Source: a virus (Duplodnaviria; Caudoviricetes). From it: a stretch of DNA of 24,318 nucleotides. Positions within the stretch are counted from its first letter, which is position 1; each line of letters opens with the position of its first letter. Below are positions 391-10,846 of the stretch, piece by piece. Made by a program: the position numbers and the translations under genes. The notes under the pieces are model-generated. The model was not told the origin of the DNA and ran no database searches. It worked only from the letters and a program-made list of their open reading frames with translations. The DNA lies in the IMG/VR virus record IMGVR_UViG_3300021978_000002, positions 1 through 24,318 of that record. The stretch is one strand, 5' to 3'.

Positions 391-577
391 CACCCAGACG
401 CACCGAAAAAAGATACATTCGCACATTGTGACTCCTTATGATTTGTCCTGCTTGGATGCCATAGGTTCCTTTCAAAACATAATAATCGGTCGAGACATAG
501 ATTCATTATTTCTCCTTAATACATTTCGCGTTGACCTTACTACGGGAAACCGCCGGTGCGTCTGATTGAGAGCTTTT
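382..577 (+). ncRNA. Structured RNA 2: RNase III-site-like stem enclosing three anti-RBS/start-codon modules
   Basis: 382-405 AAGAGCUUUCA-CC-CAGACGCACCG pairs with 554-577 CGGUGCGUCUG-AU-UGAGAGCUUUU (22 bp, 2x2 loop); GNRA hairpin CGG-GAAA-CCG at 543-552; CAU...UCCUU modules at 424-438, 460-472, 504-518. Confidence 0.6.
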
Positions 578-599: not shown

Positions 600-827
600 A
601 TGCCTGAAAGAATGATTGTGTTTTCTGACCTGTGCCCTAAGTGTGGTGCAGAAATTATAGATACTGACGGTGTTAATCTTATGGAAGACAAGGGAGAGGT
701 TAAGTGTTGGGAGTGTGGTACTACATATGAATACAGGAAAATATTTAAAGATAGTCCTGATAACCCATATTGCGATGAAGAATGGGTAAAAACTGAATAT
801 ATAGTAAAGGACGTTAGAGATGTTTGA
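600..827 (+). CDS. Small zinc-ribbon protein
   Basis: CPKCG...CWECG motif; SD AAAGGA at 588-593 favours ATG 600 over 585. Confidence 0.75.
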   Translation: MPERMIVFSDLCPKCGAEIIDTDGVNLMEDKGEVKCWECGTTYEYRKIFKDSPDNPYCDEEWVKTEYIVKDVRDV

Positions 828-1266
828 AAAAATCTTGAAACATTTTGGGTATGCAAGAAACACTGAATCAAATTACTACAAAACAGAGACTGCACGACTT
901 GAAAGAGAGTTAGCAGGATTCATTAAGGCAAATTCTAAATTATATGATGAGAAGATTGACCTGCTAAGGTTAAATGAACAGCTGACTAAAGAGAACCAGG
1001 AACTAAGAGAAGAGAAAGATGCATATTGCCACAACGCAACAAGCCAAAAAGCTCAGATTGAAGAACTAAATAGAGAGATAAAAGAGCTAAAACAGCGATG
1101 CAATGACAAAAGAGAGCAGATAGCCATACTTGATGAAGCAAATGTAAAGCTACAAAAAGAACTATCCGAATGCAAAACCCAGCTTGAAAAAGCTCTCTCT
1201 AAACCATTTAAACACGCTCATGAAGCAAGACATAAAAATATCAAGCATAGGAGAAAAAAGAGATGA
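820..1266 (+). CDS. Coiled-coil hypothetical protein with basic C-terminus
   Basis: SD AAAGGA; heptad-rich E/K/L sequence; overlaps both neighbours. Confidence 0.8.
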   Translation: MFEKILKHFGYARNTESNYYKTETARLERELAGFIKANSKLYDEKIDLLRLNEQLTKENQELREEKDAYCHNATSQKAQIEELNREIKELKQRCNDKREQIAILDEANVKLQKELSECKTQLEKALSKPFKHAHEARHKNIKHRRKKR

Positions 1267-1487
1267 CTGAAATTAGAACTAATTTAAAAGCAGAATTTAG
1301 CATTTTTGAAACGTTAGATGAAGTTGAAGATGTAGCTAAAAATCTTCTGATAAAGATTGATGAAGCTAGAAAGTCTACAAGAACAAATAAATATCACAAA
1401 GTACCTGCCGAAAAAATTAAAAATATAGAAAAAGAATTTTCAAAACTGCTAGATTGTTTTGAAATTGAAGGTTTTAATGATTACTGA
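1263..1487 (+). CDS. Hypothetical early protein
   Basis: ATGA overlap with upstream gene; GGAG SD. Confidence 0.7.
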   Translation: MTEIRTNLKAEFSIFETLDEVEDVAKNLLIKIDEARKSTRTNKYHKVPAEKIKNIEKEFSKLLDCFEIEGFNDY

Positions 1488-1505
1488 TGAAAGGAGAAAA
1501 AAGCG

Positions 1506-1688
1506 ATGATAACCATAGACAAGATCCAACACATAGAACTTAACTCTTTTTTACTATACCGTAGCAAGTGGAGGATACCAACAATTAAGGAGTGTTTGGA
1601 ACAGATAGAAAGACGGGTAAAAATTTACTTTAGTCCCATAAACATACAACGCATACAGGAGAGACGAAATGAGCACAAATCCGCCTAA
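1506..1688 (+). CDS. Hypothetical early protein
   Basis: Strong SD AAGGAG; fits the operon. Confidence 0.6.
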   Translation: MITIDKIQHIELNSFLLYRSKWRIPTIKECLEQIERRVKIYFSPINIQRIQERRNEHKSA

Positions 1689-1920
1689 AATAAAAGACCA
1701 CGAAACAACAGATATAAATATTGTAACAGATAAAACAATAGAAAAGCTAATAAATCTGAATGAACACCCTGATGGTGGACTAGAGTATCTGCAAAGCGTA
1801 AGAGATGTGTACCATGACATATATAAACGAACAGGACGCTCTTATACTTTTAGCCAAATACTTGACCAAGCCTGTGAAGATTTGGGCATTGAAGAGCCTT
1901 ACAATCCATTTGAGGATTAA
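1669..1920 (+). CDS. Hypothetical early protein
   Basis: SD AGGAG; fits the operon. Confidence 0.7.
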   Translation: MSTNPPKIKDHETTDINIVTDKTIEKLINLNEHPDGGLEYLQSVRDVYHDIYKRTGRSYTFSQILDQACEDLGIEEPYNPFED

Positions 1921-1923
1921 CAA

Positions 1924-2073
1924 ATGATTGAATTACTAACACTTTTAACCGTTCCACTAGCACTGGTAGCATACTTGATCGGCAGAATACAAGGCGAAAA
2001 AATAGCTAAAGAGAAATACTGGGACTGGACAGTCAGTTTTTATAACGGAAAACCAATAAGGATGGACAAATGA
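1924..2073 (+). CDS. 49-aa single-pass membrane protein (not in ORF track)
   Basis: MIELLTLLTVPLALVAYLIGRIQGEK...; SD GAGGA; ATGA overlap with next gene. Confidence 0.7.
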   Translation: MIELLTLLTVPLALVAYLIGRIQGEKIAKEKYWDWTVSFYNGKPIRMDK

Positions 2074-2825
2074 CAAATGCAGAATATAGAGCTGTTGACG
2101 CTATAAGTAATAGCGATTTGAGCTACATTGAAACAAATCCATACCTTTACGCACTGGGATTTAGACCACAGATAGAGTCTAAGGCTTTAGAGTTTGGTAC
2201 GTTGGTCCACGCCTTAACCCTAGAGCCTGAAAAGTTTACTGAAGAGTACGCAGTGGAGGACTTTGAGGGTTGCGAGCTAAACAAGAACTCCAAAGCGTAC
2301 AAAGAAGCCAGAGCTAACTGGCTTCAAACAGTAAACGGTAAAGAGATTATATCAAAAAGCGATTATGAAAAGGCGAAAACGCTATCAGATAGAGCAAGAA
2401 AGCTAATAGAGCCTTTAAGCGGCAAAGCTGAACAGAGCTATATATCTGATTGGAACGACCAAATAAAAGTCAAATGTAGACCTGATTTTTTAACAGATGA
2501 CGGAGTGCTGATTGATCTCAAAACTACAAGCACAGATGTAACAAGTGATTACCTACTTTCAAAAACTATTTACGATAGGAAGTACCACCGACAACTTGCT
2601 TTTTACAAAATGGTACTTGAATTGTCAGGTGTAGAAGTTAAAGAATGTGTCCTAATCTTTGCAAATACATCAAACTTATGGGTAAGAGGAGTAAAGATAC
2701 TCCCAGAAGATTTACAACGTGGACACAATGAGGCGATCCAGATACTTGATAGATATAACTCTATCCTAAAGAACGGATTAACACTTAACGGACTTTTTGA
2801 GCCTATTTTATTACCGACTTACTAA
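2070..2825 (+). CDS. RecE/exonuclease VIII-like PD-(D/E)XK exonuclease
   Basis: ISNSDL, GTLVHALTLEPEKF, KCRPDFL, IDLKTT, YHRQLAFY motifs; adjacent to recT. Confidence 0.9.
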   Translation: MTNAEYRAVDAISNSDLSYIETNPYLYALGFRPQIESKALEFGTLVHALTLEPEKFTEEYAVEDFEGCELNKNSKAYKEARANWLQTVNGKEIISKSDYEKAKTLSDRARKLIEPLSGKAEQSYISDWNDQIKVKCRPDFLTDDGVLIDLKTTSTDVTSDYLLSKTIYDRKYHRQLAFYKMVLELSGVEVKECVLIFANTSNLWVRGVKILPEDLQRGHNEAIQILDRYNSILKNGLTLNGLFEPILLPTY

Positions 2826-2834
2826 GGAGAAATA

Positions 2835-3809
2835 ATGAGCAATATAACACCATACCAACAACGAGAAACAGAAGTAAGAAATCTCATAAAAGAGAGAATG
2901 CCACAATTAGCACTATTTGTCCAGGACAAAGCCACACGCAACAAATATGCAAGTGCTATCACCTCTATAGCTATGAACAAAAACTTACGAGATGTAAGCC
3001 CTGAAAGCATAGTAAAAACAGCCTTTGAGATAGTGCAATTAGGACTAAATCCAAACCCACTATTTGGTCAGGCTTACGTAGTGCCATTTAACCTGAAAAA
3101 TGGTGGTCTAACTGCTCAACTTCAGATCGGTTACAAAGGCTACATAACACTGTTAAACCGTGCAGGATGGGCGATCCGTGCAGTAGCGGTCTATGATGTA
3201 GATAGATTTTCTATCAAATTTGCAGGACTAAAAGATGAAATAGAATTTGAACCAAACTATGATGAAAGACAAAACGACAACGGAGCCTGGGTATACAACA
3301 ATCTAAAAGGTGCAATCGTCTATGCACAGCACAAAGACGGACAAGAGTATAGCGAGTTCATCCCTTTTAGAGTGCTTGAAAAACTAAGAGTAAAGAGCCA
3401 AAATCAAAAAGCAGGACAACTTAGCAACATCTGGCTTGAGTGGACTGAAGAGATGTACCTTGCAAAAGCCATTAAGAAAGTAGCTAAAAAATTACCGCTT
3501 GATGATGAGAGAGTAATCGAAGCTACTATCTTAGAAGATGAGCCAGTGAGATTGGAAGAGAAGCCACAAGTTCAACAACCACAACCACAAACGCTTAACA
3601 CGCAAGTACTACCACCTAAAAAAGAGATTGGCAACCTTGAAAAACACTACCCTGATTTGATCCAGGCAGGTGTTAAGAGAAATGACTTAAAAGGTTTTAT
3701 AGAACGCTACCAATTGACAGATGAGAACATAGAAAGCACTCTAAACGATGTTAATGGCTTAAAAGTTATGGTTGAAGAGTTTTACAACACTGAAGAAGTG
3801 CCGGTCTAA
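2835..3809 (+). CDS. recT: RecT-family single-strand annealing protein
   Basis: LGLNPNPLFGQAYVVPF, AQLQIGYKG, EEMYLAKAIKKVAKKLP motifs; SD TAAGGAG. Confidence 0.92.
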   Translation: MSNITPYQQRETEVRNLIKERMPQLALFVQDKATRNKYASAITSIAMNKNLRDVSPESIVKTAFEIVQLGLNPNPLFGQAYVVPFNLKNGGLTAQLQIGYKGYITLLNRAGWAIRAVAVYDVDRFSIKFAGLKDEIEFEPNYDERQNDNGAWVYNNLKGAIVYAQHKDGQEYSEFIPFRVLEKLRVKSQNQKAGQLSNIWLEWTEEMYLAKAIKKVAKKLPLDDERVIEATILEDEPVRLEEKPQVQQPQPQTLNTQVLPPKKEIGNLEKHYPDLIQAGVKRNDLKGFIERYQLTDENIESTLNDVNGLKVMVEEFYNTEEVPV

Positions 3810-3818
3810 CTGGCACTT
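3796..3818 (+). other. Hairpin over the recT stop codon (weak terminator or mRNA stabiliser)
   Basis: AAGUGCCGG-UCUAA-CUGGCACUU; only a short U run follows. Confidence 0.45.
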
Positions 3819-3832
3819 TAAGGAGATAGGTT

Positions 3833-3904
3833 ATGACAAGTGAAGAGCAACACATAATAATCAAATACCTGGAAGAGAAAGCACTTGACTCAAGGTTGGT
3901 ATAA
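3833..3904 (+). CDS. 23-aa peptide (not in ORF track)
   Basis: MTSEEQHIIIKYLEEKALDSRLV*; strong SD TAAGGAG; its stop merges with the next gene's SD. Confidence 0.5.
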   Translation: MTSEEQHIIIKYLEEKALDSRLV

Positions 3905-3914
3905 AGGATGAAAT

Positions 3915-4262
3915 ATGAGACTTGTAACAAAGGCTGAAGCAGTTAAAGAGACAGGTCTACACTGGGTATATTTTGCACCATCAAGCACAACGAAAAGGTA
4001 TAAAAAAGCAATAGTTGGTAATAAAGTTGATATGGATAAACTGCAAGAGATACAAAACAAATATAAAGAGCTTGAAATCATTAGAAACTTTGTAATGTAC
4101 CTAAAGCATGAAAAAGGCATCTTGTTTAAACATATAGCACTTGTAGCTGGAAGAGCAATCCCCACAATAGCCAATCTAAAATTTGGTTTAGAACCAGCTG
4201 AACGAATCAAAAACTTTTACTATAAGCAGTACGAAGAATTTAAAAAAGAGTACGGGTATTGA
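3915..4262 (+). CDS. Basic hypothetical protein, possible HTH DNA-binding
   Basis: SD AAGGA; FKHIALVAGRAIPTIANL resembles an HTH. Confidence 0.6.
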   Translation: MRLVTKAEAVKETGLHWVYFAPSSTTKRYKKAIVGNKVDMDKLQEIQNKYKELEIIRNFVMYLKHEKGILFKHIALVAGRAIPTIANLKFGLEPAERIKNFYYKQYEEFKKEYGY

Positions 4263-4360
4263 ACCGATTTTACAGAGGATTAAATCAAATCATCTGGCTT
4301 AAACACTTACTGAGGAAAACTTTGTCCTACCAACTTGAAACAATTGTAAAAAGGATAAGC

Positions 4361-4651
4361 ATGAGTCTTGATGAAGCAATTCAAACTATACCAACATTGA
4401 AAGAAATGTTAGAGCGTATAGAACGTAAAGAGTATCTATCTGAATTTATGACACCAGAAGAAGTAGAGACAGAATTTGGTATTAGCAAAAGTACTCAAAA
4501 CCAAATGCGATCAAATCGTGAGATAGATTACTATAAACCAAAAGGTAAAGTGCTATATAAAAGAAGTGATATAATAGAGTTTGTTGAAGCTAACAAAATA
4601 CCAAAAATTTCTATTGACCGTACCAAACACCGTACCAGTAAGTTTTCTTAA
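4361..4651 (+). CDS. xis: Excisionase-like winged-HTH protein
   Basis: FMTPEEVETEFGISKSTQNQMRSNREIDYYKPKGKVLYKRSDIIEFVE is a typical Xis/HTH_17 pattern; SD AAAGGA favours ATG 4361 over TTG 4259; next to int. Confidence 0.8.
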   Translation: MSLDEAIQTIPTLKEMLERIERKEYLSEFMTPEEVETEFGISKSTQNQMRSNREIDYYKPKGKVLYKRSDIIEFVEANKIPKISIDRTKHRTSKFS

Positions 4652-4842
4652 GCCCTATAAAAACCGATATATAGGGCTTTTGTAAATTTATAAGGTACGG
4701 CTGTAAGCCGTGAACTATCACTAACCTTAAAAAAATCACTTGCAAAATAATACCATAAACACGCTACTTTTAAACTTTATTTTCTACACATTATTGTATA
4801 TTATTTAAATCATACCGTACCAATTCACCGTACCAGTACGGT
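4617..4842. other. Putative attP with integrase arm-type sites
   Basis: ACCGTACCA at 4617-4625, 4629-4637, 4814-4822, 4827-4835; inverted partial copies at 4694-4700 and 4836-4842; central dyad ACGGCT-GTA-AGCCGT 4697-4711. Confidence 0.75.
4650..4683 (+). terminator. Intrinsic terminator after xis
   Basis: AAGCCCTATA 4650-4659 / TATAGGGCTT 4670-4679 followed by TTGT. Confidence 0.65.
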
Positions 4843-4856
4843 TAGGGAGAAATAAT

Positions 4857-5915
4857 ATGCAAAAAACAAAGTATGAAGGTGTTTATTTTGTAATTGGTGC
4901 TGATGGTAAAAAAAACTACAAAGTCCGCTTTTGGGTACATGGAAAAGAATATAAACGCACAATAGGTAAAGAGCCGTTATGGACTGCAAAGTCTGCATCA
5001 CTAGAACGGGAGCGTTTGATTGATGAATACATAAATGGAGAAATCACCCAAATTAAAAAAATGGATGATATGTTTATTGAATATTTAAATGACCGTGGTA
5101 CTAAGCTCTCTAAGTGGTGGAAGAAAAACAATACATATTTATATAAGAATCATATAAGCCCTGCTATTGGTCACTTAAAGGCAGATACAATCAAACGACA
5201 TATGATTCAAAAGATTGTTGATGATATGTTAAACAAAGGATACAAGCCAAAAACTGCTAAAGATGTTAAAGACACGCTAAGTGCATTTTTCAAATATTAC
5301 GACCTACCAAACCCTGCTGCTAGAGTTGATATTCCAAAATTTGATAATTCAGTACAATTTGATCTAACAATTGAGGAATGCAAAAAAGTTTATGATGCGA
5401 TAGTAAACTATGATAACACTAAATACAGATGTTTTTTTACCCTACTTTTGCATGGCAGACGTAGAGGCGAAGCTATGAGCATAAGAGTTGAAAATATAGA
5501 CTTTAATGAAAAAGTTTATATTATTAAATATGAAGACAACAAGAGGCGAAAAACGGTGACGCATCCATTAACTCCAATGCTTGAAAAAATGATGCTAACT
5601 CTAATAAAGCAAGAAAAAATCATATCAGGGTATTTGTTTAGAGGTAGAAAAGAAGGCACTCATATATCACCTTATGCAGTTGAATATCATTGGCAAAAGA
5701 TAAAAGAAAAATCAGGCGTAAAATTGAGACTGCATGATTTACGACACATGATCGGATATTTAGGTGTAAATATGGGTGCGTCATTAGAACAAATAGGAAA
5801 AGTATTAGATCATACAAATATTTCAACTACAAAAAGATATTCTAATGTAAGAATCCAGCAAGCAGGAACATTACTTGATAATATTTTTGAGACATTAAAA
5901 AGGGAGTCTAACTAA
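4857..5915 (+). CDS. int: Tyrosine integrase
   Basis: Catalytic motifs HGRRRGE (R), LHDLRH (H-x-x-R), LDH...TTKRY (H, Y); N-terminal arm-binding-like domain. Confidence 0.96.
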   Translation: MQKTKYEGVYFVIGADGKKNYKVRFWVHGKEYKRTIGKEPLWTAKSASLERERLIDEYINGEITQIKKMDDMFIEYLNDRGTKLSKWWKKNNTYLYKNHISPAIGHLKADTIKRHMIQKIVDDMLNKGYKPKTAKDVKDTLSAFFKYYDLPNPAARVDIPKFDNSVQFDLTIEECKKVYDAIVNYDNTKYRCFFTLLLHGRRRGEAMSIRVENIDFNEKVYIIKYEDNKRRKTVTHPLTPMLEKMMLTLIKQEKIISGYLFRGRKEGTHISPYAVEYHWQKIKEKSGVKLRLHDLRHMIGYLGVNMGASLEQIGKVLDHTNISTTKRYSNVRIQQAGTLLDNIFETLKRESN

Positions 5916-6324: not shown

Positions 6325-7218
6325 CTATTTTTCAAATTCAACTTTTACACTGTAACCGCTACCATTAATAGTATGCGTAACTCTTTTGATTAGATACTCA
6401 CTGTCATCAAAACTTAGCTTACCACCAGCTATGATATTTCTACCTGTACAAGTCAAACTACCCTTCACTGTACCGCTATTTAACAATCCTAAAACTCCCT
6501 CAGCTCTTTTTAGTGCCTCTTCTTTACTTTTAAAGCTACCTCTAAGATGGTAAACTGGTTCTCCACTACCATATATCACTTCTATATCTTTATTCTCTTT
6601 TGTATCTCTAAAAGTTGCTTTAACGCTTTTGTAGAGTGTTTTATTTGCATATGTCAAAGAGTAGTTTTCTGCTTCATCTTTATCAATAGAGAAAATAGGC
6701 AAATCACTTTTTGTTTTTTCAATGAAAATGAGTGTATTATTTTTGATATTGAATGTTGCGTTGTAATCTTTTGCAAGACGATCTAAAAGATGTAAATCAC
6801 TTTCGTTTGTTTGACTTATATGCTTTAAAAAAACATCTCTAAAATCAGCTTTGACTCTTAAACCATGTTTGGAGGCAATCTTGCTGACTAAATCTTTCAG
6901 TGTTAAGTTCTCATAGCTTATATTTACTTTCTCTTTCAAATTGGCAGTAAAATTTGTACTTGTTGCTTTTACTGTTAGACTGAGCTTAGTTTGCGTGGTA
7001 GTCTGTACCAGGAAGGTACCACAAAAATAAAGTCCACTCTCTTTATATCCAAGCCATACTTTTATCTCATCTTTATAGCTTGGTCTGCTAAAAGAGCCAT
7101 CAAACTTTAACTGCAGTTCATCTGTTGCAGTACCATTCTCATCTATCAACTGAATTGAATCAGGCTCAGTTTTCAACTCACTTCCATTTATAGTGATTTT
7201 AAAATCAGGTGTTACCAT
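6325..7218 (-). CDS. Baseplate hub / late control D family (P2 gpD-like)
   Basis: VWLGY...GTFLV, QTNESDLHLLDRLAKDY motifs; U-X-D gene order. Confidence 0.9.
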   Translation of the reverse strand: MVTPDFKITINGSELKTEPDSIQLIDENGTATDELQLKFDGSFSRPSYKDEIKVWLGYKESGLYFCGTFLVQTTTQTKLSLTVKATSTNFTANLKEKVNISYENLTLKDLVSKIASKHGLRVKADFRDVFLKHISQTNESDLHLLDRLAKDYNATFNIKNNTLIFIEKTKSDLPIFSIDKDEAENYSLTYANKTLYKSVKATFRDTKENKDIEVIYGSGEPVYHLRGSFKSKEEALKRAEGVLGLLNSGTVKGSLTCTGRNIIAGGKLSFDDSEYLIKRVTHTINGSGYSVKVEFEK

Positions 7219-10700: not shown

Positions 10701-10846
10701 TTGTTTATCTCATTAAATGAAGTTGTTGCATCAATACCTTTTATGCTTTTAGAGAGATTTCCAAAACCCTCACTCATCTGTGCCAAGGGCTTTGAGACTC
10801 TATCTATCGCACTTAAAACAATCCCAAGAGTCATAAGTTTTTCCAT
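7757..10846 (-). CDS. Tail tape measure protein (TP901-type core)
   Basis: 1029 aa, Ala/Gly-rich helical core, [11 protein letters not shown] hydrophobic segment, W/F-spaced repeats, position after chaperone. Confidence 0.95.

Follow-up and report, generated by a model that had tools for sequence, protein, structure and literature searches.

The CI RNA of satellite phage P4 and the C4 RNA of phages P1 and P7 are known for their size, a cloverleaf fold and processing by RNase P. In P4, the CI RNA pairs with seqA and seqC, which flank it in its own leader, and this pairing causes termination, according to an excerpt of the published account (PMC4825925). In Campylobacter jejuni, the active part of the small RNA CJnc190 is flanked by a precursor duplex, and its C/U-rich loop pairs with the ribosome site and the start codon of ptmG at a predicted -16.9 kcal/mol, as stated in the available part of its description (PMC8687705). 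PreS of phage lambda and VpdS of phage VP882 are trans-acting small RNAs by which temperate phages alter the output of host or phage mRNAs (excerpts of PMC12197685). For Nitratiruptor-type phages, a literature search across titles and abstract openings yielded no regulatory RNA and no leader such as that reported below, and the accessible main text on four of these phages (PMC9723563) does not contain the terms "small RNA", "antisense" or "leader". A search for literature on an analogy with the N leader of phage lambda found nothing.

The phage and its early leader

The stretch of DNA analysed here ("the window") is a whole virus record of 24,318 nt with a GC content of 35.5%. Its sequence is present in eight runs, all from hydrothermal-vent samples, and the phage is a Nitratiruptor-like, temperate, deep-sea phage. 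The repressor and replication region is absent from the record, so that some possible target starts are missing from the comparisons. The genes and signals of the window are as follows:

18-46, - strand: intrinsic-terminator-like hairpin of a leftward transcript
600-5915, + strand: early operon with recE, recT, an excisionase-like gene (xis) and a tyrosine integrase gene
600-827, + strand: opening ORF of this operon (75 aa when read from the ATG at 600), with weak zinc-ribbon matches
2070-2825, + strand: recE-like exonuclease (DUF3799/PDDEXK), 68% identity to NrS-4
2835-3809, + strand: recT (PF03837, E 1.5e-26), 60% identity to NrS-4/5
4857-5915, + strand: tyrosine integrase, int (PF00589, E 5.7e-23)
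On the - strand: lysis, tail and head genes

Searches for viral relatives found none for xis and only two for int, both distant. Early ORFs 1 to 3 open with near-identical starts of 14-19 nt (595-613, 815-833 and 1259-1272), and in run X8 a gene resembling the second ORF stands directly 3' of the leader; this layout and the repeated starts suggest that the first ORF was inserted by start duplication. At the left end of the window, positions 10-190 of the - strand harbor three strong hairpins, the last being the terminator at 46-18, and an unpaired, C-rich, anti-SD-like stretch at about 95-120. From the modelled fold, a divergent small RNA is possible there.

The leader (220-581) precedes the + strand operon carrying recT, as in the P4 CI layout, and would be co-transcribed with it. 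It is composed of two hairpins, the "cassettes", each closed by a terminal stem, the "clamp". Short "modules" complementary to the SD and AUG of a translation start lie in the loop of cassette 2:

220-390, + strand: cassette 1, with clamp 220-240/371-390 and a geometry similar to that of cassette 2 (z -3.78)
335-345, + strand: copy of the first 11 nt of module B within cassette 1, without anti-SD (repeat D3)
382-577, + strand: cassette 2, with clamp 382-405/554-577 (11 bp, 2x2 internal loop, 11 bp) around a 148-nt multi-loop carrying three anti-start modules
424-439, + strand: module A, anti-SD plus anti-AUG, without a good partner in the window
458-473, + strand: module B, anti-SD plus anti-AUG, its first 11 nt recurring at 335-345
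502-518, + strand: module C, anti-SD plus anti-AUG, exact complement of the recT start
2823-2839, + strand: predicted target of module C (recT SD, spacer and AUG), opening cost 2.8 kcal/mol
390-506, - strand: 38-codon ORF that module C would open as a ribosome site

Cassette 2 (196 nt, MFE -59.9) has a fold z-score of -4.90 on the + strand and -1.68 on the - strand, and its stem contains two G:U pairs that work on the + strand only and none that works on the - strand only. Most predicted pair probabilities in its clamp exceed 0.9, with the outermost three at 0.44-0.79 at 55 C. Bases 382-390 form both the outer 3' arm of cassette 1 and the 5' arm of cassette 2, and the two outer stems therefore compete. 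Three modules of the form CAU-N4-9-CCUU fall within 410-545, where 0.13 would be expected and none of 3000 shuffles gave three; measured against the loop's own composition, its anti-SD count has a p of 0.005. By hybridisation, the best partner of module B in the window is a tail gene start at 7218 (-22.2), a pairing that exceeds all 606 starts of 17 other phage loci; this gene was set aside as a target, its net energy being only -7.0.

No Rfam model matched the window at its gathering score; within 150-650, three matches were at chance level (E 2-10), and a promoter scan found nothing above chance. As judged from its predicted fold, the leader is a real, uncatalogued structured RNA with anti-start loops. 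Several other identities were considered and discarded. Compared with the TIGR family, the locus has only one 36-nt step between repeat copies and the window holds no partner gene. AGGA is a CsrA motif, and a CsrA sponge acting through the AGGA motifs of the - strand was dropped for its weak fold and for motifs not shown in hairpin loops. A type I toxin-antitoxin module similar to AapA/IsoA, as far as the excerpted source describes it, was rejected in the absence of a conserved short hydrophobic ORF, the - strand frames from 506 and 462 being shifted in X8.

Predicted pairing of module C with the starts of recT and int

The initial annotation described module C as complementary to the starts of both recT and int. 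For recT the complement is exact: 503-518 is the reverse complement of 2823-2838 over 16 pairs, to which U502:G2839 adds a G:U. It is the longest perfect complement of 180-600 on either strand of the window, the next one measuring 12 nt. The claim that no other start matches as well is borne out by hybridisation alone over 38 window starts (recT -21.0 kcal/mol, int -16.3, tail tube -15.4, median -9.0). With duplexfold energies plus unfolding costs it survives in part: recT remains first while int drops (over 37 starts, net energy -16.9 kcal/mol for recT, -10.2 for the next and -3.7 for the median). Furthermore, the recT pairing narrowly exceeds all 606 starts of the 17 other phage loci (-22.3 vs -22.1), although the automatic start finder used in this and the other multi-locus comparisons misses or misplaces some starts. 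Module C lies in a mostly unpaired loop of the + RNA (predicted mean unpaired probability 0.62-0.70), which is C/U-rich and predicted to be accessible, with an opening cost of 2.7 for the net -16.9 with recT.

Ten of the 16 matched bases are dictated by the recE stop codon, whose three bases open the recT target site, and by the SD and the AUG. The module C 15-mer is found at 27 sites in 17 of 61 Campylobacterota genomes, and at three sites in three of the 22 genomes of the family of G041 (62 sites at one mismatch or fewer). The chance of an exact match among 38 starts is 0.3-1%, or 1-3% when three modules are allowed, an estimate that assumes one gene per kb and is uncorrected for the many features first looked at. 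At about 0.3-3%, the recT match is thus unusual yet not decisive. In RNA run X3, the mean depth is 452 for a contig at 2473-3492, which takes in the end of recE and the larger part of recT, and 2-96 for the other four contigs, values that do not rank genes. The X3 contigs cover parts of 835-3492 and none of 1-834, and show neither level nor ends.

The surroundings of int comprise three features:

4617-4836: four 10-nt direct repeats in two tandem pairs (4617, 4629, 4814 and 4827), in the xis-int gap
4791-4865, + strand: local hairpin predicted over the int SD and AUG in cis, opening cost 3.5-11.3 kcal/mol
4842-4856, + strand: weaker second match of module C, covering the int SD and spacer but excluding the AUG

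The int pairing stands as first described (505-519 with 4842-4856, 15 nt with one G:U) and can be carried to 16 nt with two G:U. The int ATG is at 4857, and the CAU of module C is matched to AAU at 4854-4856 instead of the start codon. The net energy is -5.0, -11.1 or -12.8, as set by the amount of upstream RNA included. The repeats at 4617-4836 are presumably integrase arm sites around attP, following known layouts of tyrosine integrases, and are likely to mark attP; with such repeats in the xis-int gap, int and the leader would no longer be contiguous in the prophage. Besides the repeats, this gap contains a terminator-like hairpin at 4639-4690. In these models, module C could bind int in trans, with a small computed gain that depends on the 5' end of the int mRNA, making int at most a weak side target; that it is a true target of the leader RNA is very doubtful. 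A shared style of ribosome site is the simpler explanation for the resemblance between the recT and int starts.

Related leaders and host gene starts

Cassette 2 is kept in contigs of runs X4, X7 and X8, from two other studies, where it has other flanks; the sequence 3' of the leader differs from that of the window in all three. X4 retains 221-411 with four differences and has loose ends before 221 and after 581, and X7 has a loose end after 581. X8 keeps 382-613, preceded by a different sequence before 370-382. Among the 11 listed of its 16 substitutions, nine are at positions unpaired in the MFE structure, one keeps its pair as U:G and one falls in a weak pair. The clamp is free of changes and indels among those listed, and the listed changes cluster in the module C loop. 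Module C itself is rewritten in X8, with three bases changed and two inserted within 16 nt, and when read by hand is still anti-SD plus anti-AUG. An exact target of this form is present in one of 151 genomes, at no convincing gene, and the window offers it no good match. The recT contig of X8 matches the window up to 2829; with depths of 31 for the leader and 8.7 for recT, the two contigs may belong to different phages. As for co-variation of guide and target, no relative carries the leader and recT on one contig, and X8 hints against it. The X8 leader piece lies within a 2,199-nt contig and hence shows no small RNA. In X4 and X7, module C is unchanged at the listed positions, and the leader is deeper than the recT and int starts, depth being no copy number.

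Homologs of the window leader were found neither in INPHARED phages nor in 22 genomes of the family of G041. In 401 genomes of the order of G073, the leader is absent as well, with only 18-43 nt matches (best E 0.0015), and exact-pattern scans of viral contigs returned 2 and 60 matches, all short and attributable to chance. Scans for RecT and for RecE did recover phage loci, all of them without the window's leader.

Phages NrS-1 to NrS-4, L264, L334 and the prophages of G466 and G357 possess their own, different leader at the same place (L270 11567-11720, L271, L272, L081, L264, L334, L356 in G466 and L359 in G357). This "NrS-type leader" consists of two invariant upstream hairpins and a terminal clamp around a hypervariable loop of 20-53 nt; in seven sequences, 16 of its 42 predicted pairs are changed on both sides. 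L356 has two clamps in tandem, and G478 the clamp alone. A host CRISPR spacer targets its non-coding region in NrS-4, according to part of the published text (PMC9723563). Anti-SD motifs are present in seven of the eight NrS-type loops and in the window loop, and a sense SD in none. Tested on own composition, three of the eight loops reach p 0.009-0.034, four p 0.26-0.44, and NrS-4 is without anti-SD, the loops being partly related and representing about five lineages at most.

The window leader shares with the NrS-type leader its place before the first early gene, similar clamp ends (the pattern is present at 385-574, with three anti-SD in the loop), internal loops and a variable anti-SD loop. 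In contrast, the motifs of the two conserved upstream hairpins were not found in the window, and against model R1, which placed its clamp on 221-391, the window leader scores 5.2 bits (E 0.74) where members score 152-190 bits. On this sequence comparison, the likeness is a resemblance of design, not an established homology.

For the NrS-type loops, partners in the own phage are few. Over 14 nt, the NrS-1/NrS-2 loop pairs with the SD of a neighbouring ORF on the opposite strand, a better match than any unrelated start and one that a local duplication could also explain. The best own start of L264 is equalled by at least three foreign starts, and a search for own-phage targets of the G357, G466, G478 and L334 loops found none, the G466, G478 and L334 loci being partial. 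On the + strand of L270 (NrS-1) at about 10735-10815, and similarly in L271 and L081, a 26-codon hydrophobic ORF runs opposite to the early operon; its SD is strong, and a segment upstream is able to pair over the start codon. By sequence, ORF and segment look like a type I toxin-antitoxin module. The ORF is unannotated in NrS-4, and a longer one is annotated there in NrS-1 and NrS-2. Long-range leader stems bracketing an opposite-strand ORF are seen in several Campylobacterota phages (L001 3061-3460, L264 8910-9285).

The initial annotation had named equally good matches at unrelated genes as telling against its proposal, and such matches exist, host starts pairing with the modules about as well as recT does. 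Module C has seven fully paired sites in four of five genomes (-20.3 to -23.0), of which three exceed recT; the genes concerned encode a 2-oxoglutarate synthase subunit, a rhodanese and a YeeE-like protein. Locus L200 carries the identical module C 15-mer. Module A fully pairs with the acpP start in four of 19 genomes, with 0-2 G:U, a share for which acpP was rejected as a family-wide target; the host partners of module B are scattered and unconserved and were likewise discarded. Fully paired host sites number about one per genome per module, the chance expectation, and such sites are leads only. The loops of the prophages of G357 (L359) and G478 (L478, C40:15635-15742) have one common anti-start core within different stems. 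The G478 loop pairs with the starts of a gene that we take to be napA (periplasmic nitrate reductase) in 10 genomes, at -18.3 to -31.2. With the napA of its own genome it reaches -23.7, the best of 285 background starts being -24.1 in a set enriched for such matches.

Candidate mechanism, competing accounts and known systems

It is fairly probable that the leader RNA, as modelled, works as an antisense regulator at all; recT as its true target is a tentative assignment. The reading preferred here, likewise held tentatively, is that the clamped leader hairpin gives rise, probably through RNase III cleavage, to a CJnc190-like antisense RNA with several loops, one of whose targets is recT. The early transcript would begin near 215-221, as indicated by the 5' end of the conserved cassette and the A/T-rich stretch before it. 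RNase III would then cut the clamp and release the multi-loop RNA, a step suggested by the form of the clamp and by the CJnc190 precedent, as far as the available text covers it (PMC8687705). The largely unpaired module C would bind the open recT start in trans and block initiation, so that in the early lytic phase RecT output would drop compared with that of RecE. The remaining loops may act on other starts, of the missing phage genes or of the host.

Were the selected targets of the same clamped antisense RNA host mRNAs or missing phage genes, the recT match would be incidental, because module and recT share the common TAAGGAG-N5-ATG start. This account, which is rather unlikely, is consistent with the unchanged module C and deeper leader in X4 and X7, with host starts reaching -20.3 to -23.0, with acpP fully paired in four genomes, and with the common core of G357 and G478 and the napA pairing of the latter in 10 genomes. 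But 15 of 19 genomes lack full pairing at acpP, full sites occur about once per genome per module, as by chance, the G478 loop does only about as well with its own napA as the best background value, and the exact recT match is rare in the family of G041; moreover, the genomes tested need not include the phage's host. Inside the loop of the leader hairpin, the modules might instead serve, or once have served, as ribosome sites for mini-genes on the opposite strand, and would resemble anti-starts only through being read in reverse. Each opens a - strand ORF (38, 8 and 33 codons, from 506, 462 and 426), the leftward terminator at 46-18 would suit them, in L264 another long leader stem encloses an ORF of about 80 codons on the opposite strand, and NrS-1 and NrS-2 have annotated opposite-strand genes in the early operon. 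What makes mini-genes unlikely is that in X8 the loss of one nucleotide at 452 puts the ORFs from 506 and 462 into another frame, that the X8 sequence before 370-382 alters the end of the 33-codon ORF, that the G357 loop opens only five codons, and that the SD complement of the NrS-1/2 loop has no start codon behind it; the fold also favours the + strand, and the recT match would be left to a 0.3-3% chance.

In the early leader of lambdoid phages, processing and antitermination take place. By analogy, the clamp alone may be functional, for either purpose, and the loop a free, G-poor spacer that matches starts by chance. Loop length is indeed free (20-53 nt, and 148 in the window), NrS-4 is without anti-SD, and an own-phage target is missing for most related loops; yet three full anti-start modules in one loop (anti-SD p 0.005), the three other loops at p 0.009-0.034 and the exact recT match render a neutral loop distinctly improbable. 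The initial annotation had further proposed that one RNA co-regulates recT and int, suppressing integration in lytic growth, which overlaps with the preferred reading and for which int, second of 38 starts by hybridisation, speaks. This joint control was not supported and is highly improbable: the int AUG is left uncovered, the net energy is -5.0 to -12.8 against -16.9 for recT, the int start has a hairpin of its own with attP-like repeats upstream in the xis-int gap, and the same RNA would also lower recT, a lytic-phase gene.

Beyond the CJnc190-like antisense RNA preferred here, a wider and unlikely proposal is that of a modular guide cassette in temperate phages of vent Campylobacterota, with a constant, stackable, RNase III-type clamp and exchangeable anti-start loops, in which one excised RNA would silence several starts (recT, possibly acpP, and napA in related prophages). 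If true, it would represent a natural, protein-free, re-targetable antisense array. Phage recombination would have a new point of control if RecT output were set by a leader-derived RNA. To our knowledge, Campylobacterota lack Hfq, and the clamp with its variable loops would offer a natural series for Hfq-free gain of targets by antisense RNAs. Cultured phage-host pairs for NrS-1 to NrS-5 make the idea directly testable in the related leaders. Were the loops neutral, the conserved, co-varying leader would still be an uncatalogued structured RNA.

Among described systems, PreS and VpdS depend on or bind Hfq and, in the excerpts of their source, are not described as clamped, exchangeable anti-start loops (PMC12197685). 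With P4 CI and P1/P7 C4, as far as the partial accounts go, the leader shares the proposed layout of an antisense RNA that is processed from the untranslated 5' part of an early transcript and acts on expression of its own phage. It differs from P4 CI in that its only long complement lies 2.3 kb downstream, at a translation start, and in a structure of about 200 nt. No complement of 11 nt or more was found at the first gene start, flanking targets similar to seqA and seqC were not found, and the Rfam C4 models have no match in the window. CJnc190, in the available part of its description, is from the same phylum and has a long flanking duplex and a loop directed against a ribosome site and start codon. 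It is encoded by a gene of its own on the chromosome, has an antisense partner and a single loop, and its processing by RNase III is proven, whereas the window presents a phage operon leader with three anti-start modules and two overlapping clamps, all predicted. By the features compared, and by analogy, the leader works most like CJnc190 and is placed like P4 CI, while being a member of neither.
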